A stretch of DNA of 64,000 nt, taken from contig CAZNAA010000001.1 in the NCBI GenBank assembly GCA_964571255.1, positions 620,666 through 684,665 on the forward strand, written 5' to 3'. The position numbers and the translations under genes are program-made. This DNA is from an uncultured Gammaproteobacteria bacterium (GTDB taxonomy: Bacteria; Patescibacteriota; Microgenomatia; Levybacterales; UBA12049). How positions within the stretch are numbered: the stretch's first letter is position 1; each line of letters starts with the position of its first letter. Below are positions 22,590 through 41,665 of this stretch, one piece after another. The notes below the pieces were generated by a model that had not been told where the DNA came from, did no database searches, and saw only the letters and a program-made list of their open reading frames with translations.

Positions 22590-22618
22590 ATTATAGCACA
22601 TGACTTACTCAGGTGCAA
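22590..22618 (-). promoter_or_regulatory. rpsO promoter TTGCAC(22613-22618)-N17-TGcTATAAT(22590-22598), 9 nt before ATG
   Basis: extended -10 consensus; implies leaderless or near-leaderless rpsO mRNA. Confidence 0.5.
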
Positions 22619-22762
22619 AGAGAATATCATTATCAGTCCGGCTTAGTCGAAGAGTACTAGATTCTTTAACTACTAAACATACTGCAGAAGTTGTCTTTGA
22701 AACAGGGGTTAATTCAAGAGGGTTAAGAAAAATAGCAGTCGTTTCAACCATATATTTCTATA

Positions 22763-23893
22763 TTAGACATTTGAGGAGCCTTTATATACTTTAGGGGTTA
22801 GCCAATCAGCAGGAGGAGTATTTTGTCCTTTATCACTTTGTGGTCTACTTTCCTGTTGGACTACTTGTTCCTCAACTACATCAGAAACTGCAGGAACTGA
22901 AAACGCTAAATCTGCAAAAGGATCTCGTTGAGGTTTTGGTTGGGTTGGTTGTCCACCTTGAGTATTTTGATTACTTTGCGATCTTGGTTGCTGTTGCTGA
23001 CGATTTTGATTCTGTTGTTTTGGCTGTTGGTTTCGTTGCGTATTTTGTCCAATTTGATTTTGTTGCTGTAGCTTTGATTGAGCTGGCTGATTTTGTTGTT
23101 TTGGTTGCTGCATTAAACTCATAAAGTCATCTCTGGCTTCAGTATGAAGAGCACGAGCTTGTTCCCGAGTTGCTCCTTTTTTCATGAGTTCTGCTGCCAT
23201 TTCAAAAGCAAGAAAACTCGTATTATCGTTTTGGAAATTATTTGTTCCGTCAATAATTCCAGAAAGGAGGTTTTGGGCTGCGTCTTGATCAATAGAGGTT
23301 TCATATCCAAGGGTTAAAATAAGATCAGCAACTTGCTCAGAAAGAGAAGAGAATCGACCTGAAACTAAATTAATATCGCCATATCTTTCATTACTGTCAT
23401 TATTATCAATATTTACAATCGTTGCATCTGTTAATGAGTCAGCAGCAATAGATGTATACATATCATCGTTATAGGACACCCCGATGGTGAGCAATAATTG
23501 AATAACTCCTGTTCCGCGGGTAAACTTAACACTTTGTTCATCAAAACTCAAACCAATCTCTCCAGCTTTGACTACAATGTTGAGAAAGTTATCATCCATG
23601 GTATAGGAAACGTTCTCAATTTCTCCGTCTTTATACGGGAAGGAAACAATCAAATCGCCTTCATTTGAAGCAGGCTGAGTGTGTACTTGATCAATACCTA
23701 CTAACGAGCCAACAGCAACGGTTGGTTCTGATCCAGTAATAACTTGGGGGGATTTTTGCAAACTACGCAAAACAAGAGATAAAGAAAGAGCTGCAGCCAT
23801 CTGGTCAACGGTTGGATTTTTTCCTACCAAAACCACGATTTTTTCGCTTTTCTCAATGGTACTTTTAAGATTTTGCAGTAATTGTTCGTCCAT
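22763..23893 (-). CDS. DHH/DHHA1-like (NrnA-like) protein with degenerate catalytic motifs and ~120-aa Gln/Asn-rich C-terminal tail
   Basis: N-terminal IVVLVGKNPTVDQMAAALSL resembles NrnA motif I region but lacks DGD; DHH replaced by DQVH; tail QQPKQQNQPAQSKLQQQNQIGQNTQRNQQPKQQNQNRQQQQPRSQSNQ. Confidence 0.5.
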   Translation of the reverse strand: MDEQLLQNLKSTIEKSEKIVVLVGKNPTVDQMAAALSLSLVLRSLQKSPQVITGSEPTVAVGSLVGIDQVHTQPASNEGDLIVSFPYKDGEIENVSYTMDDNFLNIVVKAGEIGLSFDEQSVKFTRGTGVIQLLLTIGVSYNDDMYTSIAADSLTDATIVNIDNNDSNERYGDINLVSGRFSSLSEQVADLILTLGYETSIDQDAAQNLLSGIIDGTNNFQNDNTSFLAFEMAAELMKKGATREQARALHTEARDDFMSLMQQPKQQNQPAQSKLQQQNQIGQNTQRNQQPKQQNQNRQQQQPRSQSNQNTQGGQPTQPKPQRDPFADLAFSVPAVSDVVEEQVVQQESRPQSDKGQNTPPADWLTPKVYKGSSNV

Positions 23894-25431: not shown

Positions 25432-26601
25432 TTACTCTTTAGTACCGTCTTCAGGAGTTTCAGGAGCTACTTCTTCAGTAACTGGGGATTCTTCTGCACT
25501 TTCAGAAATGTCTTCAGTAGCTTCTACTTCCTCTTTTGGAGCTTCTGAAGCTGTTTCACTTTCAGGTTCTACTTTTTCTGCTGCTGGCTTACTCTCAGCT
25601 ACTTCCTCAACTGACTCTTCTACTACTTCTTCTTTTTTCTCTTCAACTGGAGGAAGTCCTGCTCCTTCAATTTCAATTCTATATCCAGTTAGTTTTGAGG
25701 CTAATCGAACGTTTTGGCCATCTTTTCCAATAGCTAGTGACAATTGATCTTCAGGAACGGTTACTTTTGCTGTTTTTTCCTCTTCATTAATCGTTACACT
25801 AACGTCTTTTGCAGGAGCTAAGGCTTGAGTAATAAAGGACTTATTGTCATCAGTCCATTGGATAATATCAATTTTTTCTCCATTTACTTCCTGCAAAACT
25901 GCCTGAACTCGAACTCCTTTTTGTCCAACACAACTTCCCACAGGATCAATTCCTGGTTGGTCAGAAAACACTGCCATTTTAGTACGAGTCCCTGCTTCTC
26001 GAACAATGGTTCGAACCTCAACACTACCTGACGCTACTTCTGGAACTTCTCGTCTAAATAGTCCTTCAATAAGTCCAGTGTGAGCTCTGGAGACAATAAC
26101 TTCTTCGCCTCTCGTTCCTTCTCGAATTTCTACCAAGTAAAAAGAGAGACGCTGATTTAAGTAATACTTATCAGACCCAACTTGCTCTGATGGAGGCATG
26201 AGCGCTTCAGCTTTTCCAATATCAACAATGATATTTGGTCCTGCAAAGCGAAGAACCATTCCAGCAACAACTGTTCCCATTTTGATTTTGTAATCACTAA
26301 TGATTGCTTCTTTTTCTTTTTCTCTAATTTGTTGGAGGATTACTTGTTTAGCAGTTTGTGCAGCAATGCGGCCAAATCCTGGAGGTGTTACGTCTTTTCC
26401 TTGATGAAGAATTTTTGCTTCCCCTGTACTTTGATTTAATTCAGCTTCATATTCTTCAAGCTCAATTTCTGGATTATCTTTTCTATATGCTGCAAGAATA
26501 GCACTTTTAACCGTATCAAGTACGACTTTAGCATCGACTCCCCTCTCGGTAGCGACTTGGTTTAAAGCTAGTGCAAATTCTGAACGTTGTATAGCTGGCA
26601 T
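25432..26601 (-). CDS. nusA: Transcription termination/antitermination factor NusA with acidic C-terminal tail
   Basis: S1 and two KH domains (GPNIIVDIGKAEALMP, GSCVGQKGVRVQAV, LAIGKDGQNVRLASKLTG); start ATG 26601 (MPAIQRSEF). Confidence 0.9.
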   Translation of the reverse strand: MPAIQRSEFALALNQVATERGVDAKVVLDTVKSAILAAYRKDNPEIELEEYEAELNQSTGEAKILHQGKDVTPPGFGRIAAQTAKQVILQQIREKEKEAIISDYKIKMGTVVAGMVLRFAGPNIIVDIGKAEALMPPSEQVGSDKYYLNQRLSFYLVEIREGTRGEEVIVSRAHTGLIEGLFRREVPEVASGSVEVRTIVREAGTRTKMAVFSDQPGIDPVGSCVGQKGVRVQAVLQEVNGEKIDIIQWTDDNKSFITQALAPAKDVSVTINEEEKTAKVTVPEDQLSLAIGKDGQNVRLASKLTGYRIEIEGAGLPPVEEKKEEVVEESVEEVAESKPAAEKVEPESETASEAPKEEVEATEDISESAEESPVTEEVAPETPEDGTKE

Positions 26602-26608
26602 GTGAGTA

Positions 26609-26617
26609 ATTATAGCA
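26609..26617 (-). promoter_or_regulatory. extended -10 TGcTATAAT 7 nt upstream of nusA ATG 26601
   Basis: minus strand tcTGcTATAATtactcacATG. Confidence 0.5.
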
Positions 26618-26754
26618 GAAGAGACCCGAGCATTCAATCCGTACATGAAAGAATTGACAATAAAAGTCCTATAGTTTACAATTGGAACATGGCAAAGATA
26701 GCTTTCTTAAGCTATTTAGTCGTTCTTTAACAGTAATACATGGGTTTTTCATAT

Positions 26755-26805
26755 CTAGCTTAGGAGATAAGGTTATACCTTTTATAGCTTTTTTTCCTAA
26801 GCTAG
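26755..26805. repeat. 11-bp perfect inverted repeat CTAGCTTAGGA / TCCTAAGCTAG with 29-nt AT-rich spacer at the AT-rich/GC-rich boundary
   Basis: arms 26755-26765 and 26795-26805. Confidence 0.6.
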
Positions 26806-26820
26806 TAGCAAGGGAATCAA

Positions 26821-26842
26821 TACGCTACCACCTGGTAGCGTA
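26821..26842. promoter_or_regulatory. 22-bp perfect palindrome TACGCTACCA-CC-TGGTAGCGTA 25 nt upstream of ATG 26868 (operator-like or 5'-UTR stem)
   Basis: 10-bp arms, GC-rich like the downstream gene; followed by AGGAGG RBS. Confidence 0.55.
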
Positions 26843-26867
26843 TCTCATCCAGCAGGAGGTAGTCACC

Positions 26868-27467
26868 ATGGCGATCAACGGAAAGTTTGTTGCGTCGGCG
26901 ACGCTACTCGTTAGCCTCTTTCTCTTAGCATTACTAGGCGGAAAGAGCGGAGTGGGGTCAGAACACTACATCCCGCGTCATCAGAGTATTATTCTCATCG
27001 CTACACCCGCACTTGAGCGGGGAGAGTGCTTCGAACTTCGTTTGGAGATCGAGGAAACCTACTCCCCGACCGAACGGATGTATCACACACGAACCTTACT
27101 CACGAAGGAGGATTGGTGCAAGCTGATTGGCGCGGAGCCAGAGCTTGTCTACCAGGTCGGCAAAAATATCCGATCCGCCTCTTCTCAAATATCGATAGAT
27201 GGAGGAACGGTACGGATCGGAGGGCTTCTGAGGCCATTTGGTGCTCAGGAGCACTACAGCGTCACATACCAAGTGACGATAGATACCAGCTGGAAGTGGC
27301 AAGAGAGCTTCGGGTCCAAGGGGCCCGAATACACTCTTTTCCGCATGGGCGATAATCAAAACTCGCCCCCGGCAGATTACATACTCGAAATCACGGAACC
27401 TGAAGGAGTCTCCATTCTCACTGATGAGGGGAGGTATTCCAACTTCGTGATGTCCAAGTCACGCTGA
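26868..27467 (+). CDS. Hypothetical secreted protein encoded in a GC-rich islet (~199 aa, N-terminal signal/TM)
   Basis: AGGAGG 8 nt upstream; MAINGKFVASATLLVSLFLLALLGGKSG...; local GC ~55% versus ~38% flanks. Confidence 0.55.
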   Translation: MAINGKFVASATLLVSLFLLALLGGKSGVGSEHYIPRHQSIILIATPALERGECFELRLEIEETYSPTERMYHTRTLLTKEDWCKLIGAEPELVYQVGKNIRSASSQISIDGGTVRIGGLLRPFGAQEHYSVTYQVTIDTSWKWQESFGSKGPEYTLFRMGDNQNSPPADYILEITEPEGVSILTDEGRYSNFVMSKSR

Positions 27468-27487
27468 TTGATGAGGGGTGGCTGTCC

Positions 27488-27514
27488 ACAGTGGGCGGCC
27501 ACCTGATCCCTATG
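27488..27514 (+). terminator. GC-rich hairpin GGTGGC-N15-GCCACC (loop contains palindrome CCACAGTGG) after the islet ORF; no U-tract
   Basis: seen directly; weak as intrinsic terminator. Confidence 0.3.
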
Positions 27515-27657
27515 AAAAAGCCTTTTTGTACCTAGTGAAAATTTTTGAAGTCTTCATTTATCTGCAATTGCGCAGAGAAAAAGGAGATTGAGGAAAGATC
27601 ACAAAATACAAAGCGGTGAGAGGAGCAATCTGCTTCTTCCCCATGTATTACAACAAC

Positions 27658-30033
27658 TTATTTAGAAATCGTATAGATAATTTCTTCATTCTCAACTGAA
27701 AATACTACCTTACTTCCCCGTTGCAGCATATCTTGCAGTTTCATTTTCGCTAAAGCATCCTCAATCGTATCCTGAATATAGCGTCGTAAAGGCCTGGCTC
27801 CAAACTGATTATTAGCTCCATGTGTAGCAATAAAGCCCAAGATGCTTTGATCAAAGCTAACCAAAAAATCTTGTTCTTCAAGGTATTTTGTTAACGATGC
27901 AAGCATGAGCTTGGTCACTTCTATTTGTTCCTGCGCAGAAAGAGGTTCAAACATGATGACATCATCAAATCGATTCAAAAGTTCAGGAGTATACAACCCT
28001 TGTGTTTGCAAAAATTCTAACAGATCTGTTTTCAACTGTTCTGCTTGAGTTTCTGCTTGAATTTTTTCTCGAATAAATTCTGCCCCTGCATTTGAAGTTG
28101 CAATAATGATTGCATTTTTAAAGGACACAACTCTTCCTAACGCATCTGTTAGTCTTCCATCGTCAAGTACCGGAAGGAGAAGATTTAAAACATCTCTGTC
28201 TGCTTTTTCAAATTCATCAAGAAGAATAAGACTAGAGGGATGATCCCGAACAGCTTCTGTTAATTCTCCTCTTCCATTATTTCCTCCAGGCATGCCAATC
28301 AGTCTCGCAACTCCTTCTGCTCCTCTAAATTCACTCATATCAAATCGAAGCATTTTCCCTTCTCCTCCAAAATAGACTGAGGCTAAGGCTTTAGCTGTTT
28401 CTGTTTTTCCAACTCCGGTTGGACCTAGAAACAGAAACGAAATAGGTTTTTTAGGAGGTTCTATATTTGACCGAATTCGCCTCACTGCCTCGGCAATTGC
28501 CACAGTTGCGTGCTGTTGACCAATAATTCTCTCTTGTAACTTGTCTTCAAGGGACAAAAGAGTTTTCTTTTCTTCTTGGCTTGGAGGAAGAGCCGTCGCA
28601 ACCCCTTTTTGTCCAACCGTTTGAGCAACATCTGATTCTTCTAAGAATTGTACTTGTCTTGTCTGGTGGACCCGTTGCCTGACATATCGGATACTGTCCT
28701 CAAGAAGGTTTATCGCACTTCCCGGAAGAACAACGTCTTGGGCATAAGAATCAGAGAGGCGAATTGATTCACGTAAGGCTTGATAACGGATTTTTACTCC
28801 AGTTCGTTTCTCTAAGTCTTCAACTTTTTCACATAAGATATGGAGTGCCGTTTGTTTATCAGGCTCTGAAATAGTAATAACCGTAAAAGCCTCACGAGCT
28901 GGACTATTTTCTAAGTATTGCTTATAGGCAGCTTGGGTCATAGTTGCAATAACAGGAAGTTTCCCATTTTTTAAATAAGGAAGGAGCGCTTCGGCAATAT
29001 TTACCTGGAAAGTAGGATTTCCCAGAATGTTTTCTAAGGCTGGAATATACAAAAGTACGTTATAAGAATGAGACACTTCTTGAATAATGGTTTGTAGCCT
29101 CGTTTCCAAATCAGCTCTATTAGCTGCTCCTGCCAAAAGTTGTCCTACCATTAACTCCAAAATTCGTCTGAAATTTAACTTTTCGGTAAGATTTCCAGAT
29201 TCTGTATCAAAAGCAAAGGCTTTTATGATACTCTCCTTCCCTACACCAATATCTCCAACCAGTAACACGTTATTATTCTCTGGTTTCTGAAGCGTTCCAA
29301 TTAACTCTTCATATTTTGCCTCTCTACTAAATAAATGAGGCCTTTGATAAGAGGAATAATAAAATTCTTGCGTATACTTTTGCGTTTCTGGGGTCCAGCC
29401 AGAAACTACTGCGTCTCCTATTCCTCTGCCACTGACCCGTACTCGAAACGGTTGTGGGTTTTCTTCTTCTGGATGAGCCATTCGAACCCAAGAGAGAAGA
29501 ACAAGGAGATCCTCTCGTTTTAAGTGGAGATTAAAAAGGGTTTGGCTTTGTTCCTCAATAAGCAACAAATAAGAAGCTAATAAATCCATTCGTAAAATGT
29601 ATTTACCCTTCACTTCTGTTGCTAATTCATAGGCAGTACGTAATAGTTGTTGCTGATCCACAAATATCTGAGGAATCATCTGTTTCTCAACTCCAAACCG
29701 GGTGAGAAAGAACTGCCCTTCAACCGTATTTAAAATATTGATTATTCCCCTTGTTCCTTTTTGATAGGCCAAAAGAGCATCAAGCGTACAACACTGGGTT
29801 AAATCAGAAGGATTTTCTGGAATCGTTTTATCAGGCATCATATGGCCTATTTTTCCAAAAACAAACAGCTCAGACGTAATTAAAAATTGAGTTAAAAAAA
29901 GCAAATAAGGAAAAAGGACTTTAGTCTCCCAAGAAAGATAGGCCAAATAGCTTAGTATTAAGACGCCTACTCCTCGAACAATAAGAAATTGCCAGGAAGT
30001 ATAGACTTGATAAATATGGGCAAAATATTTCAT
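27658..30033 (-). CDS. Hsp100/Clp-family ATPase paralog: N-terminal 2-TM anchor + Clp_N-like repeats, degenerate AAA D1 (Walker A GDIGVGKES, Walker B lost), intact D2, no M-domain
   Basis: TMs FLIVRGVGVLILSYLAYLSW / VLFPYLLFLTQFLITSELFVFG; D2 [55 protein letters not shown]; start overlaps upstream gene stop (ATGA). Confidence 0.85.
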   Translation of the reverse strand: MKYFAHIYQVYTSWQFLIVRGVGVLILSYLAYLSWETKVLFPYLLFLTQFLITSELFVFGKIGHMMPDKTIPENPSDLTQCCTLDALLAYQKGTRGIINILNTVEGQFFLTRFGVEKQMIPQIFVDQQQLLRTAYELATEVKGKYILRMDLLASYLLLIEEQSQTLFNLHLKREDLLVLLSWVRMAHPEEENPQPFRVRVSGRGIGDAVVSGWTPETQKYTQEFYYSSYQRPHLFSREAKYEELIGTLQKPENNNVLLVGDIGVGKESIIKAFAFDTESGNLTEKLNFRRILELMVGQLLAGAANRADLETRLQTIIQEVSHSYNVLLYIPALENILGNPTFQVNIAEALLPYLKNGKLPVIATMTQAAYKQYLENSPAREAFTVITISEPDKQTALHILCEKVEDLEKRTGVKIRYQALRESIRLSDSYAQDVVLPGSAINLLEDSIRYVRQRVHQTRQVQFLEESDVAQTVGQKGVATALPPSQEEKKTLLSLEDKLQERIIGQQHATVAIAEAVRRIRSNIEPPKKPISFLFLGPTGVGKTETAKALASVYFGGEGKMLRFDMSEFRGAEGVARLIGMPGGNNGRGELTEAVRDHPSSLILLDEFEKADRDVLNLLLPVLDDGRLTDALGRVVSFKNAIIIATSNAGAEFIREKIQAETQAEQLKTDLLEFLQTQGLYTPELLNRFDDVIMFEPLSAQEQIEVTKLMLASLTKYLEEQDFLVSFDQSILGFIATHGANNQFGARPLRRYIQDTIEDALAKMKLQDMLQRGSKVVFSVENEEIIYTISK

Positions 30034-30415: not shown

Positions 30416-33280
30416 CTATGCAGCTGCAGAAAGTGTCGCACCCGTTGCTGGAGGTTTCGGAGCATCAGGCTGTGACTGATTAAACTCTTGCGTCGGTGGT
30501 AAATTCCACCCAGAAGAAGAAGCAGCAGGAGGAGGAGGTACAGCTGATACAGGGGATGAACTCATAACTGGTGCACCTTCAGTTATTGGAGGCAGCGATG
30601 ATACAGGAGAAGGGGTAGAAGCGAGTAGAGACGGAGGTACCTCTACTGGAGGCATTTGAGATGTGTCAGCAAGATTCTTTTCACTCATTGGATCAATTTC
30701 ATCTAGTTTTGCATCAGGAGTTGGAGGGATTTCTTCTCCTTGAACAGGAGAGGCATCCGGTTTTGCACCACCTGCACTAGCAGAGCCTTTAGCAAAGGTG
30801 AATTCTGATTTTGTAGCGTCGTATCCAACTAAAATAACATCAGGTGAGGCAAATGTTTTCCCAATAAGCTTGACTGCGATGGGATTTTCAATAGAGGTTT
30901 GAATCAACCGTCGTAACGGACGAGCTCCATAGACTGGATCATATCCTTCCTTGGCAAGCTCCATGAGAGCAGATTGGGTAATTTGGAGATCAAGTCCTTG
31001 CTCTTGAAGCAGATGGGCTGTTTTGGCAATATTATTTTTGGCAATTGAGGCCATATCAGCTTGTGCTAGAGGCTTAAAGACAACTACTTCATCAAATCGA
31101 TTCAAAAGCTCTGGCTTGAAAAACTTATGCAACTCATCAGAAAGAAGTGAATTAAGGTCTGCAAAGTCTTTCTGATACTCCTCCTCAGTTGCATGAGGTT
31201 TGCTCATTTGCTGCTGGATCAAAGCACTTCCGATATTTGAAGTAGCAATAATAATGGTGTTTTTGAAAGAAATAGTATTTCCTTTGTTATCCGTAAGTCT
31301 CCCATCCTCAAGCAGTTGCAGTAAAATATTAAAGACATCAGGATGGGCTTTTTCAATCTCATCAAGAAGCACAATGGAGTACGGTTTTCGTCTTACTGCT
31401 TCTGTTAATTGACCACCCTCTTCATAGCCAACATAGCCTGGAGGAGCTCCGATAAGCTTGGCTACTTCATGTTTTTCCATATACTCACTCATATCAAGTC
31501 GAACAAGTGCGTCTTCTTTGCCAAAAAGAATTTCAGCTAGGGTCTTGGCCAACTCTGTTTTTCCAACTCCAGTAGGGCCGAGGAAAATAAATGAAGCAAT
31601 CGGACGAGTAGGACTTGCGAGTCCAATTCTTCCTCTTTGAACTGCCTCTGTTACTGATTGGACAGCTTCTTCTTGCCCAATAAGACGTTTGTGGATAAGC
31701 TCAGCCAAGTGAAGTAGTTTTTCTCCTTCATCTTCAGTCAATTTAGTAATAGGAATCCCTGTCCAACTACTTACAACCTTTTCAATATCTGATTTGACTA
31801 CTGCTGTATCTGTTTTTTTACCTGTTGAGTGTTGCAGCTTAACATCTGCTGCAGCCTCATCCATCAAATCCACTGCTTTATCTGGCAAAAATCTCTCTCC
31901 AATATATTTTTTTGACAAATGGACTGCGTCTTTTAAGGTTTCATCTGAAAAAGTCACACTATGAAACTTCTCATATTTTGGCTTAATGATTTGAAGCATC
32001 TCAACTGCAACTTCCTCAGTTGGTTCGTCAACTATAATTGGCTGAAAGCGTCTTTCAAAGGCTTTATCCTTTTCAAAATGCTTCCGATACTCACTGGTTG
32101 TTGTCGTTCCAATAAGCTGCAACTGTCCCCGAGCTAGATAGGGTTTAACAATATTTGAAGCATCCAGTGCTCCTCCCTCATCTCCTGCTCCAATAAGAGT
32201 ATGAATTTCATCAATGAAAAGAATGATCTCTCCACTCGCCTCAATGGTTTCTTTAATAACATCTCGAAGTCTCTCCTCAAACTCTCCCCGATGAGATGCT
32301 CCGGCCACAAGAGAGGCAAGATCCATTTGAATAATTCTTTTACCTGAGAGATCTTTTGGAGCAGTTCCTCCCACAATTGATTGAGCAAGGCCTTCAACAA
32401 TAGCCGTCTTTCCAACTCCTGCCTCTCCAATGATAATAGGATTATTTTTCGATCTTCTGAGTAAAATATGCACCATTCGCTCAATTTCTTTATCTCGTCC
32501 TGCAATCGGATCTAATTTTCCGTCTTTGGCTTGTTGAGTGAGATCAATTCCATATTTCTCCAAAACTGATTTTTTTCCCGTGTGATAGGTGGGATTTTTA
32601 GCAAGAGACTGAACAAGCTTATCTTTTTGAATTCCCTTCTCACTGAGTGCTTTATTCATCGATTCCAAAGAGGCAAGAGCTACGAGGAGATCTTCAGGTG
32701 AGATAAAGGCAACTCCTCGTCCTTTCACGTCCTTATATGCAGCATCAAAAACTGATTTGGTTTGATCACTCAGTTTTGGCTGCCCTGAAAAATTCCCTGG
32801 AATTTGTTTCGCTTGGATTTCTTTAGAAAGGGCTCCAACATCTACTGATTCTTTTTGCAAAAGAGCAAAAATTTCTTGATCAAAAAGAATTCCATATAAA
32901 AGCAAATCTGGCTCAATCTTTTCTTTTTTCAATCTTGTTGCTTCTTCTTGAGCATGGGTCAAGGCTTGGGAAGATCTCGCATCTAGATGAGAAAGAACTG
33001 ACATGTCTTGCTTGGTTGCAGGATCTAAGGAAGAAGACGTTGAGGCAACAGGTGTTTGTCCTATAGGAGCTTCTGGATCAAGAGGAGTTGGATCATTAGG
33101 AACAGGAGATACAGGCGTACTCGTTGCACCTGAAGAAGCTAATGGAGCTTGAGGTACAGGAGTAGCTACTGGCTGAGCAGATGGTGTTTGTCCGTCTTCT
33201 GGTTTATGAAATAAATTACCAAACATAGTTCCATTATGGACATAAGTTTTGTCAAAAAGCAACTTATAACCTGTCTTCAC
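30416..33280 (-). CDS. ClpA/ClpC-type Hsp100 ATPase (two Clp_N repeats, canonical D1 and D2, no long M-domain) with Pro/Ser/Thr-rich N- and C-terminal extensions
   Basis: D1 [32 protein letters not shown]; D2 [56 protein letters not shown]; 954 aa; overlaps upstream gene by 17 nt. Confidence 0.9.
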
Positions 33281-36200
33281 TTACAGGAGCTTTTTCCTCT
33301 GTTTTACTTGGTGGAATCTCTTCTTTTATCTCCATGTGTTGCACCTTCATCTCAGGCTTTTTCTCGTCACGTCTGGCAGGAAGTTTTGATTCTTCCTCTT
33401 GCTCTTTTTTATCGACATCCTCAAGTACATCTTTGGCTGCTTCTTGTTTGGCCTTCAAATAGCCAACAATTTCTGTTTGTGAGAAGCCTCCAATAAGAAG
33501 GAACGGCAGAATACCTGATACTTTTTTCATTCCTTCCTGTCTTTTTTCATTGACTGGAGAGGAAAGAAGGTTAATGGCCTCAGTAATCTCTTCAATATCT
33601 TGACTGATAAATTGAGCCTTTGGTACTTTTTGTCCTTGTCTAATTGGTTCATCGAGATTTTCATAGTTTTCCTTCCAGATTTTTTTGACTGCTTCATAAT
33701 CCTCAAGTGAGACGTTTTGAACTCTATTCACAACGGGGAAGGAGACATCTTTTTTAATCAGTGAGGTATTGGGTTTTTGCTGGCGTTGTTTGACCAACAA
33801 ACTATAAATAAATCCAGCTAACTGATCACCCTTGTCTTTGGCCTTTACTAGTTCCTCTTTGACTTTCTCAACGGTAACTACAGGCTGTACAGGTGTAACC
33901 GTTTGGATAAGTTGAGTAGCAAAAGGTGTTTGTTGTTGAGCCTCAAGACGGATTTGTTGGGTGAGATTAAAGACTGTTTCTTTACTCGCTTCTCCTCTTC
34001 CCTCAATCATATCCAAAAGTTGCGTGGCAAGTTTGTTGCCTTTTACTTGCTCTTCTTTAATAAAGGTAAGAAGTACTGTGTAGGACTCTTTCTCTTTTTG
34101 ATCAGTAATAAGCTCTGGTTTAAGAAGTTTCTCAACAATCTCTGTAACTTTTTGTGACTGAACTGGAGCAGGAGTAGATTGGACAGGAGTAGTTTGTTTT
34201 TGAACAAGTGTAGAAAGAACCGATTGGAGAGTTGTACTTCCTCGTACTTCTTTTATCGTTTGAGTTACTTGCTTAATCAGATCTTGCGTAATATTTTGAG
34301 GTGATTGGAGAATAGGGAGAAGTTGAGTAGCTAACTGATCACCTTTTTGGGCATCTTTGACAATCGTTTCTCGAATAGTCATAGCTGTTTCTTTTTCTTT
34401 TTGAGGAAGCAAATCAGGTTGAGCTAGGTGTTGGATAAAGGTAGCAACATGATTTTCTGTAATTTCCGTTGTCCCTTGTTGCAAATACGTATTGGTAATG
34501 TAGTTTACAACTGATTGATCTGTTTTATTAACTTGGCTCATTTGCTGAGTGAGAGAATTCATAACAGATGGAGAAAGAGATTGCGTTTGGGTAATAAGTG
34601 AGAGCAGTTGACGAGCTAGTGGAGTACCCAACACTGCTTCTTTCGTAATCGTTTCTTTCAAAACTTCTATATTTTGCTTGTCAGAAATGTTGGTAATCAC
34701 CTCAGGATGTGCGAGTTGGTTAATAATAGTAGTTAAGGCTTGCTCTGTTGAAACAGCTTGGGTACTACTCGACTGATCAGTTTTGGAGGAGATATATTGA
34801 TTAAGAGTTGTGGCAAAAGAGTTTCCCGCAACAGATTGCTGGCTTACGGTCTCTTTGACTTTCTCATAGACTGTTTTTTCGGTTATTTGAGTAACTCGCT
34901 CAGGTGTTGCAATGTTATTTAAGATATTAATTAACACTGGTCTGTCGTCTGAAACAGTAACAGGAGTTGAAACAATAGCACTGGATGCTTGCAATACGAC
35001 ATTGGCAAATTGATTCCCTCTTTGACTTTCATTTCTTAACGTCTCTCGAATCCTTTCAAATTGTTGTCTTTCAACAGGAGTTCTAGCCAGTTGAGGATTT
35101 GAGATTTGTTGGAGATTTTGAACAGACACAGGAGTACTCGTTTGCGTTGTTGTTGTCGTTTTTATTTGATTAGTATCGAACATGGCAATATCTCGCATAG
35201 TAGGAATTGCTACTTGGATTTGTTTGAGAACTTCATTTAACCTACTCACCTCTGTACTTCGAATAACAGGAGTTGATTGCTGCTGTTGCACTGAAACCGT
35301 TTGTCTTAATGGCCTTGCTTGAGGCAGTGACTTGGCCTGAGAGGCTGGAGTAACCGATTGAACGATAGGTTCTGAGAAAGGAAGTTGCAGCTTTCGTCCA
35401 AACGGCAAACTGAGAGCCTTTCCAGTTGGGAAGGAAGGAGGAGTAGGTGGAGGTGGTGGAGATAGTGGTTGACGATTAAGCATAGTATTTGAGAGAGCAA
35501 GAAACTGCTTCATTCCTGGAGCATCATTTAAAGCAAGACTAAATAGATAATCAAGAAAAATACGAAGCAAGATAAAGGGCAAAATCATAACAGCCCACAG
35601 CATCATGAGACAAATAGTGTAGAGAGCAAACGTTTCAGGAAGATTCACGCTACTGGCAAGACCAATAGCTTGTCTTGGTCCTCCTAGTAAAATATTCACT
35701 GCTGTTTGATAGACAGGAGTTGCCGTTTTCGTAACAATAGTTCCTGTTGGTTGATAAGAAAAAAGCGGAATGGTTGATTGCCACAAAGAGACAAGTCCTG
35801 CAAGGAGTACGGCAAAAAGAGGGCCATATAATACCCACCGGAAAAACTCCCCTATCCAAATTTTAGCGGTATTTCGAATCGGCCAGTAGAAAAGAAGCAG
35901 AGGGAAAATGGGAGAGATAATAATAAAAAACCACAATACTATTTTTCGAATAATAAGCATGGCAGCCATGGCATAATAGGTAACTGCAGTAAGTCTGGTT
36001 AAAAGAAGCGTCATGAACGCTGACTCATCAGTAAAGGAGTCTACTCGCTTGTACCCGATAAAGTCTTCATATTTAAATGCAATATTTAGCAAATTTTCTT
36101 GACTAATTGTTTGACGCACTGCAGCAGTGGCGGGATCTGGATTTCGCAGGAAAAACCCTTGGGTAATATCAGTTAGTTGATAAATGATCTGGACCATTCC

Positions 36201-36584
36201 AAATGAAAAGGTGACTAGAAGTAAAATTCCCACAAAGCGGGGAATAAATTTTTGCAAGCTAATATTACTTCCCCTAGTTATGAGCATCAAAAACGCTGTT
36301 GAGAGAATAAAGAGAGCAAAGAATGCATAGACAAGATTTCTGATAATAATCCAGAAAGGAATGAGAGGGTTTCCTTCGTTGCCTAACTGCACCCATTTGT
36401 AGTTTTCCAACGTCCAATCCAAAAACGCTCCAGCTCGTGCAGCTGTTTTTCCAACAAAGGTTACTTCATTATCAACAACCCACGTTCCAACTAAGTCAGC
36501 TGCAAAAATATGAGAGGGAACAAAGAACAAAAGAATACTAAAAATGGTAAGAAAAAGAAGAAAGTTGGGCAGCAAGCGTTTCAT
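33264..36584 (-). CDS. Large membrane protein (1106 aa): signal peptide + ~7-8 TM N-terminal module, poly-Pro linker, ~600-aa Gln/Thr/Ser-rich region of ~6 degenerate tandem repeats, acidic/Lys tail
   Basis: repeat signatures ETIVKDAQKGDQLATQLLPIL / ETITKEAVLGTPLARQLLSLI / EEQVKGNKLATQLLDMI / KAKDKGDQLAGFIYSLL / RNESQRGNQFANVVLQ / QQSVAGNSFATTLNQYI, each preceded by (H/Q)PE(V/L)IT-like segment. Confidence 0.8.
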   Translation of the reverse strand: MKRLLPNFLLFLTIFSILLFFVPSHIFAADLVGTWVVDNEVTFVGKTAARAGAFLDWTLENYKWVQLGNEGNPLIPFWIIIRNLVYAFFALFILSTAFLMLITRGSNISLQKFIPRFVGILLLVTFSFGMVQIIYQLTDITQGFFLRNPDPATAAVRQTISQENLLNIAFKYEDFIGYKRVDSFTDESAFMTLLLTRLTAVTYYAMAAMLIIRKIVLWFFIIISPIFPLLLFYWPIRNTAKIWIGEFFRWVLYGPLFAVLLAGLVSLWQSTIPLFSYQPTGTIVTKTATPVYQTAVNILLGGPRQAIGLASSVNLPETFALYTICLMMLWAVMILPFILLRIFLDYLFSLALNDAPGMKQFLALSNTMLNRQPLSPPPPPTPPSFPTGKALSLPFGRKLQLPFSEPIVQSVTPASQAKSLPQARPLRQTVSVQQQQSTPVIRSTEVSRLNEVLKQIQVAIPTMRDIAMFDTNQIKTTTTTQTSTPVSVQNLQQISNPQLARTPVERQQFERIRETLRNESQRGNQFANVVLQASSAIVSTPVTVSDDRPVLINILNNIATPERVTQITEKTVYEKVKETVSQQSVAGNSFATTLNQYISSKTDQSSSTQAVSTEQALTTIINQLAHPEVITNISDKQNIEVLKETITKEAVLGTPLARQLLSLITQTQSLSPSVMNSLTQQMSQVNKTDQSVVNYITNTYLQQGTTEITENHVATFIQHLAQPDLLPQKEKETAMTIRETIVKDAQKGDQLATQLLPILQSPQNITQDLIKQVTQTIKEVRGSTTLQSVLSTLVQKQTTPVQSTPAPVQSQKVTEIVEKLLKPELITDQKEKESYTVLLTFIKEEQVKGNKLATQLLDMIEGRGEASKETVFNLTQQIRLEAQQQTPFATQLIQTVTPVQPVVTVEKVKEELVKAKDKGDQLAGFIYSLLVKQRQQKPNTSLIKKDVSFPVVNRVQNVSLEDYEAVKKIWKENYENLDEPIRQGQKVPKAQFISQDIEEITEAINLLSSPVNEKRQEGMKKVSGILPFLLIGGFSQTEIVGYLKAKQEAAKDVLEDVDKKEQEEESKLPARRDEKKPEMKVQHMEIKEEIPPSKTEEKAPVSEDRL

Positions 36585-36702
36585 ACTATAAATTCATAAA
36601 AAGAGTAGACAGAATTACCTATCTCTCCTCTTGTATAGTAGCATATTTACTGACTCATATTGGAATAGATATTTAACAAATTGTGGATGAAAAAGAGATT
36701 CA

Positions 36703-36733
36703 GGTATCCCGCTGCAGTTAGCAGCGGAATACC
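36703..36733 (-). terminator. 13-bp stem hairpin GGTATcCCGCTGC-AGTTA-GCAGCGGaATACC followed on minus strand by UCUCUUUUUC
   Basis: seen directly; sits between GC-islet ORF and the Clp operon start. Confidence 0.5.
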
Positions 36734-36904
36734 ATACTCTTGCGATGATAGTGTGAAGGAGTAGTCTACGGTAGCCTGCATCTCCCACCCAATGGAATCA
36801 TGCCCCCAGCGTTTACCCACCCTGAGGCGCGTAGTCGCTTTGCAACCGCCTGCTCGTCTTCTTCTTTGGTACGGGCTTGACATGATCTCCATCCTTTCTT
36901 GTTG

Positions 36905-37276
36905 TTAACCATTTATCTGCTCGTCGATCATCGAGAGCAGCAGTTCGCGGACATTGTCCTCCGCTAACAACCGTCGGAGAGCAAGCCTCGTGATAGCACC
37001 CTTGAAGGCCGAGAGAAAGATCTCGATGATAGCGTGTTCGTGTTGGGAAGCAAAATTGTGTTTTTTTTGCTTCGCCAAATCCTGCCACCTCGGATAGTGG
37101 GGGCGTTCGTGGGGGAAGAACTTAACAGTCTTTTCCCCCCAGAAACGCCACCTGGGCCTGCGATGATCTACCCTATTGAACTTATCCCACGTTTCTATTG
37201 GAAGTAAGTCCACAAGTGCTACAACAAACGCTGTAGTATTGTTTTTGAGGTCGATTTGAGAATCTAGGATTTCCAT
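36905..37276 (-). CDS. Hypothetical protein in second GC-rich islet (~123 aa)
   Basis: GGAGG upstream of ATG 37276 (MEILDSQIDLK...); GC ~50%; overlapping alternative-frame ORFs judged spurious. Confidence 0.45.
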   Translation of the reverse strand: MEILDSQIDLKNNTTAFVVALVDLLPIETWDKFNRVDHRRPRWRFWGEKTVKFFPHERPHYPRWQDLAKQKKHNFASQHEHAIIEIFLSAFKGAITRLALRRLLAEDNVRELLLSMIDEQING

Positions 37277-37524
37277 TTTTCCCTCCTGCCCTCCTACCAC
37301 TGGTACATCCAGTAGTATTGAAGCAAGTAAAAAGAAAAGAAATTAATTCCTTCCCTCTTTCCTTGCTTCAAAAGATAACAGAGATTACGTTTCACAACTA
37401 TTAATGTGCAAGAGAATTAAAATATTCTAGGTTCTACTAGATTTCTGCATTCAGAAATAAGTTGAATCTAAAAACTGAGAAGATTATAAGATAAAAATAG
37501 AGAGATTGCAAACTATGGGGTTGA

Positions 37525-38406
37525 TTAGAACCAATTTTTCTTTTTGGAATCGGTACTATCAAATTCTTCCAGTAATTCTTTTTGTCTTTTCGTTACACTT
37601 TTTGGAATAGCCACTTTAATCTTGACGTAGTGATCTCCATTCCCGCCTCCTCTGATTCTTGGCATTCCTTTCCCAGAAAGTCTAATAAGCATTCCAGGTT
37701 GTGTTCCTGAGGGAATTTTTATCGTTACTTTTCCTTGAACTGTTTCAACAGGTAATTGAGTTCCGAGTACAGCTTGAGGAAAAGAAATCTCTTCTTCTGT
37801 AATAATGTCTGCTCCTTCTCTTTGATATCTGTTGTGAGGCTGTACATCAATAAGAACGTCATAGTTTTCAAATCGAATACGAGATCCTCGGTCTACCCCT
37901 GCTGGGATTTTTATCTTTTGTTTTTTCCCATCAATCGTTACTTCTTTTTCTACTCCTTTTATAGCATCATCAAAAGTAATGGTTAAGGAGTAAACAGGAC
38001 GACGTTGGGCTCTGGAGAAAGGTCCGCCGGCTCCTCCAAAAAATTGTTCGAAAATTTCAAAGGGATCTGAAAATCCGCCAGAATCAAATCCTTGGTTTTG
38101 AGAAGAAGAATAAGTATACGTAAATGGCCCTCCTCCTTGGAAAGGTCCACCAGGTCCTGGTCCCCCTGCTCCTGGACCTCCTTGATCAAAAGCAGCTGAA
38201 CCATATTGATCGTATAATTGTTTTTTCTGAGGATCTGAGAGAACTTCGTATGCCTTAGTTATTTCTTTAAATTTAGTTTCTGCTTCCTTAGTTTTATTTC
38301 TATCTGGGTGATACTGCAGTGCAAGCTTTCGATATGACTTTTTTATTTCATCAGGTGGAGATGATTTGGTAATTCCTAGTAATTGATAATAATCAGTTTG
38401 TGCCAT
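37525..38406 (-). CDS. dnaJ: DnaJ-family co-chaperone (J domain + G/F region + C-terminal domains; no Zn-finger CxxCxGxG repeats)
   Basis: YYQLLGITKSSPPDEIKKSYRKLALQYHPDRN. Confidence 0.9.
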   Translation of the reverse strand: MAQTDYYQLLGITKSSPPDEIKKSYRKLALQYHPDRNKTKEAETKFKEITKAYEVLSDPQKKQLYDQYGSAAFDQGGPGAGGPGPGGPFQGGGPFTYTYSSSQNQGFDSGGFSDPFEIFEQFFGGAGGPFSRAQRRPVYSLTITFDDAIKGVEKEVTIDGKKQKIKIPAGVDRGSRIRFENYDVLIDVQPHNRYQREGADIITEEEISFPQAVLGTQLPVETVQGKVTIKIPSGTQPGMLIRLSGKGMPRIRGGGNGDHYVKIKVAIPKSVTKRQKELLEEFDSTDSKKKNWF

Positions 38407-38425
38407 AGGTCTTTAGATACGAAAG

Positions 38426-38443
38426 AAGCGCGTTTCCGCGCTT
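38426..38443. other. Intergenic hairpin AAGCGCG-TTTC-CGCGCTT between dnaK and dnaJ
   Basis: 7-bp GC stem; minus-strand RNA loop GAAA; T-run on plus side, weak U-run on minus side. Confidence 0.4.
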
Positions 38444-38467
38444 TTGTATAGCTTTTTGAGCTAATAG

Positions 38468-40381
38468 TTATTCTACCACTTCTCCTTCTTTTGCTTTTCC
38501 TTTATCTTCTCCCGGCTCTTTTTTCTCATCACCATCAGTTTTCCCATCTTCCTCAACTGCTTCAATTTCTGGTTCCTCAGTTGGATTAGGAGTAGATTGC
38601 ATATGTTGTCCAATTTTTTGCATAGATTCAGCTAACTCTTTGGATTTACTCTCAATCTCTTCTTTGCTTCCTGAATCAAGTACGCTTCTGAGACTACTGA
38701 TTTTTTCCTCAACTTCAGTTTTTATTTCATCAGTTATTTTCCCTTCAGCATCTTTAAGGGATTTTTCTGCAGTAAAGATGAGTGAGTCAGCCATGTTTTT
38801 AGCCTCAACTTGAGATTTTTTCTCTTCGTCTTCTTTTGCATGCAACTCTGCTTCTTTAGTCATTTTTTCAACCTCTTCTTTGGATAACCCAGTTGAGCCT
38901 TGAATCTTGATACTTTGCTCTTTGCCACTAGCTTTGTCTTTAGCCGTAACGTGCAAGATTCCATTGGCATCAATATCAAAAGTCACCTCAACTTGTGGCA
39001 TACCTCGTGGAGCTGGTGGAATTCCGTCTAGGATAAATCTTCCCAAGGATTTATTATCAGCTGCCATAGATCTCTCCCCCTGTAATACATTAATTTCAAC
39101 TTGTGTTTGGTTATCAGCAGCAGTTGAGAAAACTTGGGATTTACTCGTTGGAATAGTCGTATTTCGATTAATAAGAGGAGTTGAAACAGCACCAAGCGTC
39201 TCAATACCCAGAGTTAATGGAGTAACGTCTAAAAGAAGTACATCTTTAACATCTCCTGCCAATACTCCTCCTTGAATGGCTGCACCCATGGCAACGACTT
39301 CATCTGGATTTACTGACTTATTGGATTCTTTCCCAAAGTATTTAGAAACTGTTTCGATAATCTTTGGCATTCGAGTCATTCCTCCAACCAAAACGACTTC
39401 ATCAACCTCCGATGCTTTCATCCCAGCGTCTTTAAGAGCTAATTCTACTGGTTTAAGCGTTTTTTGAACTAAATCATCAACAAGTTGCTCAAGCTTGGAA
39501 CGAGTCAAAGTCAAAGTCAAATGTAGTGGGCCATTCTCTCCTTGGGTGATGAATGGTTGATTAATGGATGCCTCTTGTGAAGAAGATAGTTCAATTTTGG
39601 CTTTTTCAGCAGATTCTTTGAGACGTTGGAGTGCTTGAGGATCTTTTCTCAAATCAACGTTGTTTTCCTTTTTAAATTCATCGGCAATGTGATCAATAAT
39701 GACTTGATCAAAATCATCTCCTCCCAAATGAGTATCACCATTCGTCGACTTTACCTCAGTTACGCCTTCTCCTAACTCAAGAATAGAAATATCAAACGTC
39801 CCTCCGCCCAAGTCATATACGGCAATCGTATGAGAGTTTTTCTTATCTAAGCCATAGGCTAAAGCTGCTGCAGTTGGTTCGTTAATAATTCGTTTTACAT
39901 CAAGTCCAGCAATCTCTCCAGCTTGTTTGGTTGCTTGGCGTTGACTGTCATCAAAATAGGCGGGAACGGTGATAACTGCTTCTGTTACTTTCTCACCCAG
40001 ATAGGACTCTGCATCGGCTTTGATTTTTTGCAAAATCATGGCTGAGATTTCTTGTGGAGTAAAGGTTTTCCCATCAACCTCAACTACTGCCATTCCATCT
40101 CGTCCTTCTTTAACAGTGTATGGAAGCCATTTCAAATCGCGTTGTACGGATTCGTCTTTAAACTTTTTTCCCATGAGACGTTTGACTGAGAAAATGGTTT
40201 GTTTTGGCTTTAACACCATTTGGCGCTTAGCAACGTCTCCAACAACGTGGGAGATTGGGTCAACCACTGAAGGGATAACGTTTCTGCCTTCAGCTGAGTG
40301 GATAACATTTGCCATTCCACCTTGCATTACAGCAACGCATGAGTTTGTTGTTCCTAAATCAATTCCAATTATTTTACCCAT
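38468..40381 (-). CDS. dnaK: Chaperone DnaK (Hsp70)
   Basis: [31 protein letters not shown], acidic C-terminal tail. Confidence 0.97.
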
Positions 40382-40443
40382 ATATTTTTTGTGAGTCTTT
40401 TTAAGATCTCAGAGAAAAAAATTTATTTTTCTTCTCTCAAATC

Positions 40444-40956
40444 TTACTTTCCTCCAACTGCTACTTCAGCAGGACGTAGTAATTTTCCGTAGAGCAAGTA
40501 TCCAGGACGTCTTTCTTCAATCACTATATTAGCATCTCCGTCAATAATTTCAACTGCCTCCATGAGGGATGGATCAAAAACTTTTCCAACTGTTTCTATC
40601 TTCTCAACCCCTTCACCTTTTAGTGCGTCTTTGTAGACAGTAATGACTAATTCAAGAGTCTTATCAGTATTATGCTTTGAAGTCATCTCCAGCATATCTA
40701 GAGTGGGAAGTAATCGTTGCAGAAGAGACAGATTGGCACTTTTAATCCACTCTGACTTTTCTTCTCGTACTCGCTTTTCAAGGTTCTGATAATCAGCAAG
40801 AATTCTCTTGTACTGATTTGTCATTTCTTCTAGTTGTATTTCGCAACTGTCATGTATGTCTTCTTCAAGAACAGGCATTTCCTCCACGTCTTGTTGTTCC
40901 TCTTTCACTTGATCTTGCTTCTTCATAATTTTACCACTGTTTTGCCACGTCTTCAA
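40444..40956 (-). CDS. grpE: Nucleotide exchange factor GrpE
   Basis: coiled-coil N-half and C-terminal beta domain; operon position. Confidence 0.85.
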   Translation of the reverse strand: MKTWQNSGKIMKKQDQVKEEQQDVEEMPVLEEDIHDSCEIQLEEMTNQYKRILADYQNLEKRVREEKSEWIKSANLSLLQRLLPTLDMLEMTSKHNTDKTLELVITVYKDALKGEGVEKIETVGKVFDPSLMEAVEIIDGDANIVIEERRPGYLLYGKLLRPAEVAVGGK

Positions 40957-41665
40957 TCAAATCTCCAAAATATCTTACTGCAGGAACAATAGTTGTATAG
41001 TTAAGGCGTTGTGGTCCAATAACTCCAATTTCTCCATGTTCCTGTCCTGGTACGTTGTACTCAGTAAAAACTAACCCATATGGTCCTTTTAACGCTCCTC
41101 CTAATTCATCTCCCATAACAATGTGAATTTCTTCATCAACGTCACTGTTTGCAAATAGTACTTTGAAATATTCATACTCATCCAAGGCTTGTAAAAGTGT
41201 TTTAGTGATATCGATATCAAAAAACTCTGGCATATCTAAAATATGTGCATAGCCTGAGCAATAGATTTGTCCACTTCCTGTTGTAGCAATGGCAACGGCT
41301 CCCGTTTTTTGAGCTAATGACTTAGTAACTTCCCTCAGAAACCTATCGACTTGAGACCGATAATCCCATACATTTTCTTTTAAGGCTACTTCCTCAACCG
41401 TTGATAACTGCTTTACTTTCATTAACTCTTTGACATACAGTCTCATGCCTTCAGCGGTTGGGATTCTTCCGGCTGAGGTGTGAGGTTTTTCTAAATAGCC
41501 AAGAGTTGTTAGATGAACCATTTCGTTTCGAATGGTTGCAGGAGAAGCACTTAAATTATATTTCTTCTCAATGGTTTCTGATCCAACTGGTAAAGCAGTG
41601 TCAATGTATTCCTCAATAATACTTTTCAGAATATCGATTTGACGCTGAGTAAGGTTATGAATCAT
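40931..41665 (-). CDS. hrcA: Heat-inducible transcription repressor HrcA (short, 244 aa)
   Basis: N-terminal winged HTH (TQRQIDILKSIIEEYIDTALPVGSETI), operon hrcA-grpE-dnaK-dnaJ. Confidence 0.85.
   Translation of the reverse strand: MIHNLTQRQIDILKSIIEEYIDTALPVGSETIEKKYNLSASPATIRNEMVHLTTLGYLEKPHTSAGRIPTAEGMRLYVKELMKVKQLSTVEEVALKENVWDYRSQVDRFLREVTKSLAQKTGAVAIATTGSGQIYCSGYAHILDMPEFFDIDITKTLLQALDEYEYFKVLFANSDVDEEIHIVMGDELGGALKGPYGLVFTEYNVPGQEHGEIGVIGPQRLNYTTIVPAVRYFGDLIEDVAKQW

Follow-up and report, generated by a model that had tools for sequence, protein, structure and literature searches.

How did a GC-rich gene with a Shine-Dalgarno sequence come to lie between clpL and nusA in the AT-rich genome of a Levybacteria species (Microgenomates), that is, in a member of the candidate phyla radiation (CPR)? 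An earlier note on the 64-kb stretch of contig CAZNAA010000001.1 that was analysed here (the window) had described this islet as a horizontally acquired mini-cassette or as the remnant of an integrated element. This proposal is upheld by the presence of the islet gene in two species only, by a clpL-nusA junction that is empty in 11 of 15 relatives, by a GC content at third codon positions (GC3) of 0.60, by the Shine-Dalgarno site and by the orphan nature of the product. The islet is very probably a foreign insertion, and on balance we favour the fuller account that a 919-bp non-autonomous cassette was inserted once between clpL (here a ClpB-like AAA+ gene) and nusA. Delivery by transposition, in the manner of a mobile insertion cassette (MIC), is proposed tentatively, with slightly less than even confidence. 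Three observations go beyond the earlier note, namely 12-bp inverted repeats together with a 4-bp duplication, a 52%-identical allele in a sister species, and a near-consensus promoter that is located outside the element.

Sliding-window analysis of the 64 kb gave a mean GC content of 38.7% (standard deviation 2.7%) over 600-bp windows, and the 600-bp window with the highest GC content (0.530) was found in the islet, the best elsewhere reaching 0.503. The abrupt edges that had been read from the sequence at about 26806 and about 27520 were recovered by maximum likelihood as change points of composition at 26823 and 27512. The GC-rich segment and the gene that it carries are arranged as follows:

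26806-27515, + strand: GC-rich segment (GC 0.528), which holds hairpin H2, the ribosome-binding site, the open reading frame (ORF) and the 3' GC hairpin
26854-26859, + strand: Shine-Dalgarno sequence AGGAGG, 8 nt 5' of the ATG; kept in the sister species
26868-27467, + strand: islet gene (the cargo), from ATG to stop codon, 199 amino acids (aa); an ORFan family

To the left and right of this segment, AT-rich parts show GC contents of 0.315 and 0.375, and a value of 0.336 was obtained for the native spacer. GC3 is 0.60 for the islet gene and 0.58 for its sister allele, compared to 0.20-0.30 for clpL, nusA and infB. Also, the start signals of the islet gene differ from those of its surroundings. 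Among 43 long ORFs, AGGAGG precedes only that of the islet gene and GGAGG one other, and the count therefore confirms the claim that such a ribosome-binding site is rare elsewhere in the window. Native genes almost never have a Shine-Dalgarno sequence, and many have a TATAAT box 6-10 nt 5' of their ATG; examples are found at 2662-3153, 42117-43565 and 51669-53813, and at nusA with its ATG at 26604. As TATAAT-like boxes stand 6-10 nt before the starts, leaderless or very-short-leader mRNAs may be widespread in this Levybacteria genome.

The window was placed in the Levybacteria by its NusA, for which the best species-representative matches are 72-76% identical, and the gene order clpB-small ORF-clpL-nusA-infB is kept in Levybacteria relatives. 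The clpL stop codon and the nusA start are 0-140 bp apart in 11 of 15 other Levybacteria loci; for L100, the nearest outgroup (NusA 83% identical), the distance is only 52 bp. In the window, this gap amounts to 1011 bp if the listed start of the nusA ORF is used and to 1053 bp if the probable true start, the ATG at 26604, is used. Empty sites occur among the relatives, at a divergence too great for the exact breakpoints to be aligned. L102 was dismissed as a further empty site, since a gene other than clpL lies upstream there. The islet gene was found in this genome and in one sister species only, at the same site. In three assemblies of the sister species, a homologue (P0002) is located between nusA and clpL, and ClpL and NusA are 91% and 95% identical, respectively. 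Neither the window nor the roughly 1 Mb of loci from relatives contained a paralogue of the islet gene.

Could the gene nevertheless be native and ancestral, and have been lost from all other Levybacteria? Purifying selection on the gene is compatible with such a history, for which nothing specific speaks. It would require, however, that the 11 syntenic relatives had all lost the gene, and it leaves unexplained a GC3 about two to three times that of the host, a Shine-Dalgarno sequence atypical for the genome, and inverted repeats and a target duplication that bracket the insertion. We consider a native origin exceedingly improbable.

The clpL-nusA spacer tolerates insertions, since four other Levybacteria carry unrelated accessory DNA of native GC content there, and judging from these loci it is a recurrent site of gene gain. 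Two of them (L017, 3897-6001, and L053, 2152-5977) contain accessory ORFs for N-terminally hydrophobic proteins (222, 448 and 989 aa), the third (L019, 3420-3938) an ORF of 136 aa, and the fourth (L011, 5508-5962) no ORF of at least 60 aa. In L004, another related genome, a tandem (TAAATAC)n repeat at about 5880-5945 fills the spacer.

Inspection of the flanks of the GC-rich segment revealed the putative ends of a wider element:

26729-26732, no strand: left direct repeat AACA, putative 4-bp target-site duplication
26733-26744, + strand: left terminal inverted repeat GTAATACATGGG, 12 bp, perfect; kept in the sister species
27640-27651, - strand: right terminal inverted repeat CCCATGTATTAC (as read on the + strand), which starts 6 nt past the clpL stop codon
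27652-27655, no strand: right direct repeat AACA, putative target-site duplication

The 12-bp repeats bracket 919 bp (26733-27651) and thereby more than the GC-rich part. Removal of the element together with one AACA yields a spacer of 130 bp, which keeps the nusA promoter and a small hairpin after clpL and is like the spacers of the relatives in size and layout. The sister species shares these repeats and flanks, which points to a single event in the common ancestor. A 28-codon minus-strand ORF that runs from the right inverted repeat was also considered as a gene and was discarded on account of a frameshift at this place in the sister species.

The significance of these ends was estimated from 2000 shuffles in which the composition of each segment was preserved, and it bears on the choice between transposition and a second kind of acquisition. 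The gene might have been acquired horizontally without transposition, by illegitimate or homology-facilitated recombination, in which case the repeats would be a chance match or a regulatory site pair. For the inverted repeat alone (a perfect pair of 12 bp or more, at a distance), P was 0.0135, which is significant, but both the repeat pair and the target-site duplication were noticed post hoc. The combination of such a pair, 12 bp or longer, with a flanking 4-bp direct repeat was obtained in 0 of 2000 shuffles, and this result, like the native-sized spacer with its nusA promoter that exact excision restores, argues against acquisition without transposition. As the AACA duplication is short, the support from the target-site duplication is modest. 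Acquisition without transposition would agree, on the other hand, with an element that is single-copy across the window and the fetched loci, no other copy of the 12-mer being found in the 64-kb window even with one mismatch allowed. It would also agree with the absence of a transposase or an insertion sequence (IS) with matching ends among window ORFs of at least 150 aa; none of the 44 such ORFs has a transposase or integrase Pfam domain, which bears out the earlier note on this point. The element is AT-rich at both sides and GC-rich in its inner 710 bp, and the best promoter sits outside the repeats. Altogether, recombination without transposition appears rather unlikely to us.

The points just listed on the side of recombination weigh at the same time against the cassette that we favour, and so do four that concern its cargo. 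No donor or homologue outside the two species was found in about 15 billion proteins or in genome, metagenome and viral contigs. AlphaFold2 models of the product, from the single sequence and from a two-sequence alignment, are unusable, with values of the predicted local distance difference test (pLDDT) of 42 and 36. The two alleles share no conserved signal-peptidase site, the residues after the N-terminal helix being KSGVGSEH in one and NNWIRPMD in the other. Finally, synonymous divergence between the alleles is still above that of the neighbouring genes (Fisher p about 0.004, an estimate), and some allele exchange may therefore have taken place. With regard to the contrast between an AT-rich shell and a GC-rich cargo, a cassette account needs an additional assumption, and the composition suggests that foreign cargo had been caught earlier by an AT-rich shell, in a two-step history, or else that amelioration was very unequal.

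In AT-rich genomes, a GC-rich islet is often an RNA gene, and the present one might be a GC-rich structured RNA, or else an assembly chimera or a binning contaminant. Logan contigs from SRR8893622 and SRR8893624 match the window over both junctions with 100% identity, and a contig from SRR8893623 has the same gene order and encodes an identical protein. In total, six junction-spanning contigs from six datasets, three per species, show this arrangement; the junctions thus recur in contigs of separate datasets, which rules out chimerism. The literature was searched for the sample accessions and yielded no pertinent paper. In the region 26500-27800, Rfam gave hairpin-like matches below threshold only; similarly, no Rfam family reached the gathering threshold in the leader (26690-26867), where sub-threshold matches were to microRNA-like hairpin models only. 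No tRNA or tmRNA genes were found for the islet. Because no family reached threshold and tRNA genes are lacking, we conclude from the sequence that the islet is not a structured RNA. In contrast, the pattern of substitutions is that of a coding region: identity between the two alleles is 63/76/38% at the three codon positions, the only gap in their alignment comprises six whole codons, and both keep the start codon, its Shine-Dalgarno site and, at the C-terminus, FVMSKSR followed by the stop codon. On these grounds the islet ORF is judged to be protein-coding and under purifying selection, and a chimera, a contaminant or an RNA gene has a next to negligible probability.

In the two species, every gene and spacer measured over 13 kb shows 82-98% nucleotide identity, compared to 57% for the islet coding sequence, and the encoded protein is 52% identical, compared to 91-95% for the neighbours. 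According to the method of Nei and Gojobori (NG86), the proportion of synonymous differences (pS) is 0.83 versus 0.50 for clpL and that of nonsynonymous differences (pN) 0.28 versus 0.058, and because of these values it was at first suggested that the alleles are older than the species split. This interpretation was downgraded after an analysis of 4-fold degenerate sites and a calibrated amelioration model. At 4-fold sites of conserved residues, the islet alleles are 39% identical (20/51; random expectation 24%) and clpL, nusA and infB 56-64%. The 4-fold divergence of the islet is about 1.9 times that of its neighbours, with a wide interval, and about 1.5 times would be expected for a GC-rich gene under AT-biased mutation. 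Calibration of a two-state relaxation model with 1084 4-fold sites of neighbouring genes gave a correlation of strong and weak bases (S/W) of 0.355 and a per-lineage factor of 0.60, and the model traces the present GC3 of 0.58-0.60 to about 0.80-0.84 at the species split. With such a starting value, a donor of roughly 60-65% GC (an estimate) would be plausible. The rate of nonsynonymous substitution (dN) is 0.36 versus 0.06 for the neighbours, about 6 times that of clpL, at a ratio to the synonymous rate (dN/dS) of roughly 0.2. From the 4-fold analysis and the calibrated model it therefore follows that a single acquisition by the ancestor, together with partial amelioration and a dN some 6 times that of clpL, suffices to explain the divergence.

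A variable-allele locus would be another source of such divergence, with ancient alleles swapped via conserved flanks or with independent acquisitions. Variable alleles are typical of surface proteins under frequency-dependent selection. The low identity of the coding sequence within well-conserved surroundings, the raised pS and the low 4-fold identity all fit this possibility, as do the ends of the ORF (about 45 nt at the 5' side and about 25 nt at the 3' side), which are better conserved than its interior. The same spacer in other Levybacteria, moreover, sometimes contains other accessory genes, some of them for N-terminally hydrophobic proteins. However, the 4-fold sites are not saturated and their excess divergence is mostly as AT-biased mutation predicts, the repeats and the target duplication are identical in both species, and only two alleles are present in the databases searched, so that no allele pool is visible. 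We regard a variable-allele locus as improbable. Unusually conserved flanks were considered as well and rejected, as the flanks show the background identity of 82-90%. At 22600-22800, identity to the sister species was seen to drop a second time (49-65% versus a background of about 88%), in and near short ORFs between a 376-aa ORF and the S15 gene.

Homologues of the islet protein were sought in about 15 billion proteins in all. A word-indexed search of 5.8 billion proteins returned only the islet protein itself, and an exhaustive HMMER search of 1.84 billion representatives one true homologue, the sister allele P0002, which has 192 aa and is 52-54% identical over the full length. A match to P0003 (3311 aa, repetitive) was rejected as spurious and due to low complexity, and a profile search for further homologues added nothing. 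With one homologue among so many proteins, the product deserves the name of orphan that it had been given. Neither allele matched Pfam, NCBIfam, PHROGs or PADLOC, and a sequence profile search of the PDB yielded a chance match only (E = 0.6). No homologue of the protein was detected in genome, metagenome or viral contigs, and nothing was found with the DNA of the 919-bp element in phage records or with the protein in plasmid records. In viral contigs, the 20-mer of the left end had 0 matches and the 3' hairpin motif 65, which are presumably generic GC-rich matches.

The predicted product has a hydrophobic segment at residues 7-25, with a Kyte-Doolittle value (19 residues) of 2.26, compared to 2.08 in the sister allele, and a positive charge ahead of it (K6, or R2 in the sister allele). 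AlphaFold2 placed an N-terminal helix at residues 4-23, which includes the only blocks with a mean pLDDT above 60, and scattered strands. A domain of about 170 aa follows the hydrophobic helix, and Cys54 and Cys84 are conserved. The product is thus probably exported or membrane-anchored, and a membrane-anchored or secreted extracytoplasmic domain is its most likely nature. The islet protein lacks a cysteine lipobox. Its description as a secreted protein is supported in part, by the N-terminal hydrophobic helix; because a conserved signal-peptidase site is missing, an uncleaved membrane anchor appears from the sequence equally likely.

Upstream of the islet gene, two promoters and two hairpins were located, and two more hairpins follow the gene:

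26609-26637, - strand: nusA promoter TTGAAT-17-TGcTATAAT, followed after 4 nt by the ATG at 26604 (MPAIQRSEF)
26654-26682, + strand: putative sigma-70-type promoter TTGACA-17-TACAAT, with 11 of 12 consensus matches, facing the islet gene
26755-26805, + strand: hairpin H1 with an 11-bp perfect outer stem, CTAGCTTAGGA / TCCTAAGCTAG; AT-rich, at the left compositional boundary
26820-26843, + strand: hairpin or palindrome H2, ATACGCTACCA-CC-TGGTAGCGTAT; in its RNA form a 10-bp stem with an ACCU loop
27476-27504, + strand: 3' GC stem-loop with 13 bp, two of them G.U pairs that are possible only in RNA of the + strand
27511-27530, + strand: small A/U hairpin, UGAAAAAGCCUUUUUGUA, where the sequence turns AT-rich again

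The putative sigma-70-type promoter is located in the native spacer, beyond the inverted repeats that bound the element, and is arranged back-to-back with the nusA promoter; its counterpart in the sister species, TTGACA-17-TATAAT, agrees with the consensus in 12 of 12 positions. The nusA genes of relatives have TGGTATACT about 6-9 nt before their ATG. The nusA ORF as listed (25432-26646; 404 aa) probably has its true start 14 codons later, at the ATG at 26604; the extension overlaps its own promoter, and homologues align only from about residue 15. From the sigma-70-type promoter, transcription is predicted to start at about 26690, which would give a 5' untranslated region of about 178 nt. This predicted leader folds as three hairpins (z = -5.5).

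The 11-bp inverted repeat at the compositional edge (26755-26765 and 26795-26805), which was already known, proved to be part of a longer hairpin, H1, with 23-nt arms that are 83% complementary (-27 kcal/mol, z = -5.8). H2 (-15.4 kcal/mol, z = -8.4) ends 24 nt before the ATG. The repeat is real, but it had been described as a perfect 22-bp palindrome at 26821-26842, and it consists of two 11-nt arms (26820-26830 and 26833-26843) around a CC that is not palindromic. Between the species, H2 differs by two changes per arm, both of which keep complementarity, as would be expected for an RNA stem or for a dimer operator that co-evolves with its regulator; two sequences fit either. H1 and H2 each occur once in the window, and among 104 fetched loci both hairpins and the 3' hairpin motif are confined to this species and its sister species. 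Across the window and these loci, the palindrome is therefore not a common repeat, its only other copies being in loci of the two species.

The GC hairpin that closes the islet exists, but at 27476-27504 and not at 27488-27514, where it had been placed. Its stability is about -25 kcal/mol. In the sister species the stem is perfect, GGTGGCCGCCC / GGGCGGCCACC, and both G.U pairs are C-G there. The stem at 27476-27504 is directly followed by GAUCCCUAUG and not by a U-tract, and a terminator scan made no call; it is therefore not a canonical intrinsic (Rho-independent) terminator. Most likely, the stem-loops would stabilise or terminate the transcript.

How does the islet compare with known systems? 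MICs are defined as one or more passenger genes between IS-type inverted repeats, without a transposase and mobilised in trans, and examples are MIC231 of Bacillus cereus and the TnXax1-derived MICs of Xanthomonas (PMC4337579; PMC6542083). Like a MIC, the islet has one passenger gene and no transposase, short terminal inverted repeats, a short target-site duplication and a size of about 1 kb. In contrast to MICs, it is known from one copy only, no cognate transposase was found in the window, its ends match no IS tested, its host belongs to the CPR, and the composition of the cargo is sharply unlike that of the element shell. With horizontally acquired ORFan islets it shares an odd GC content and GC3, atypical translation signals, a patchy distribution with an empty site, a position in an intergenic spacer by conserved genes, and a fast-evolving protein. 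Unlike typical horizontal islets, it contains a single gene and no tRNA, integrase or phage genes, and neither a donor lineage nor a homologue in another lineage was found in the databases searched. With an integron cassette, the islet has in common a compact ORF of about 0.7 kb that apparently lacks a promoter and has an imperfect palindrome on its 3' side. However, core sites of the types RYYYAAC and GTTRRRY are lacking in 26733-27657, and the window has no intI and no cassette array.

Stem-loops at the 5' and 3' ends of mRNAs stabilise transcripts, as in the ompA 5' untranslated region and the repetitive extragenic palindromic (REP)-type 3' hairpins. The islet resembles these in that its ORF is enclosed by stable hairpins (-27, -15 and about -25 kcal/mol) and in that the G.U pairs of the 3' hairpin exist on the mRNA strand only. 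It differs from them in that the 3' hairpin has no U-tract and H2 could be a protein operator.

The history that we favour would then be the following. A transposase-less cassette (26733-27651) would have entered a clpL-nusA spacer of about 130 bp, 6 bp past the clpL stop codon, in the ancestor that this Levybacteria species shares with its sister species. Its cargo (26806-27515), with a 5' stem-loop, AGGAGG, the ORF and a 3' stem-loop, would stem from a higher-GC donor that uses Shine-Dalgarno sites. Transcription would start from the sigma-70-type promoter of the native spacer, which points away from that of nusA, and produce an mRNA with a structured leader of about 178 nt and a stem-loop at its 3' end. 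The product would enter the membrane via its N-terminal helix and expose about 170 aa, a cysteine-containing and probably beta-rich domain, on the outside of the cell. After its arrival, the gene would have drifted toward the AT-rich composition of the host and its protein would have evolved fast, with purifying selection kept.

Some further features of the window were noted. A second GC-rich islet (36680-37300; GC of up to 0.57 over 150 bp) is located between a 1106-aa ORF and dnaJ and contains two minus-strand ORFans, of 123 aa (ATG at 37276, with GGAGGGCAGGAGGG just before it) and of 81 aa, for neither of which a credible Pfam match was obtained. It may be a second foreign import like the first. 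This second islet lies within a heat-shock cluster (30416-41665, - strand) that comprises hrcA-grpE-dnaK-dnaJ, the islet, the 1106-aa membrane protein (weak TrbL/VirB6 match), clpB (954 aa), a membrane ORF of 115 aa and a ClpB-like gene of 791 aa without Clp_N. At 58348-61277 (- strand), two adjacent genes encode Citrate_bind, ATP-citrate synthase ATP-grasp, Ligase_CoA and Citrate_synt C-terminal domains; such ATP-citrate-lyase-type domains are unusual in a CPR bacterium of reduced metabolism. At 6123-9210 (+ strand), a 790-aa protein with a weak Baseplate_J match is encoded directly 5' of a sortase gene.

A bolder interpretation would make the islet the first recognised of a family of transposase-less, inverted-repeat-bounded cassettes of CPR bacteria (Patescibacteria) that import Shine-Dalgarno-led, GC-rich genes from another phylum, possibly that of the episymbiont's host, with fast-evolving surface proteins as cargo for host attachment or phage evasion. 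If this were true, the second islet, whose first ORF has a strong Shine-Dalgarno sequence, would be a second such import; we consider this interpretation highly doubtful. The islet is a clean but ordinary small horizontal acquisition of an already known kind. CPR genomes are small and their gene traffic has been little examined at the level of single insertions, and the present case can be followed at base-pair resolution. The foreign gene is recognisable by its GC3, by a Shine-Dalgarno sequence in a genome mostly without them, and by repeat-and-duplication scars, and with the flanking genes as a standard, its orthologue in the sister species makes amelioration and protein divergence measurable. 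Should the product be a surface protein, it would be a candidate for the interface between symbiont and host or between the bacterium and its phages.

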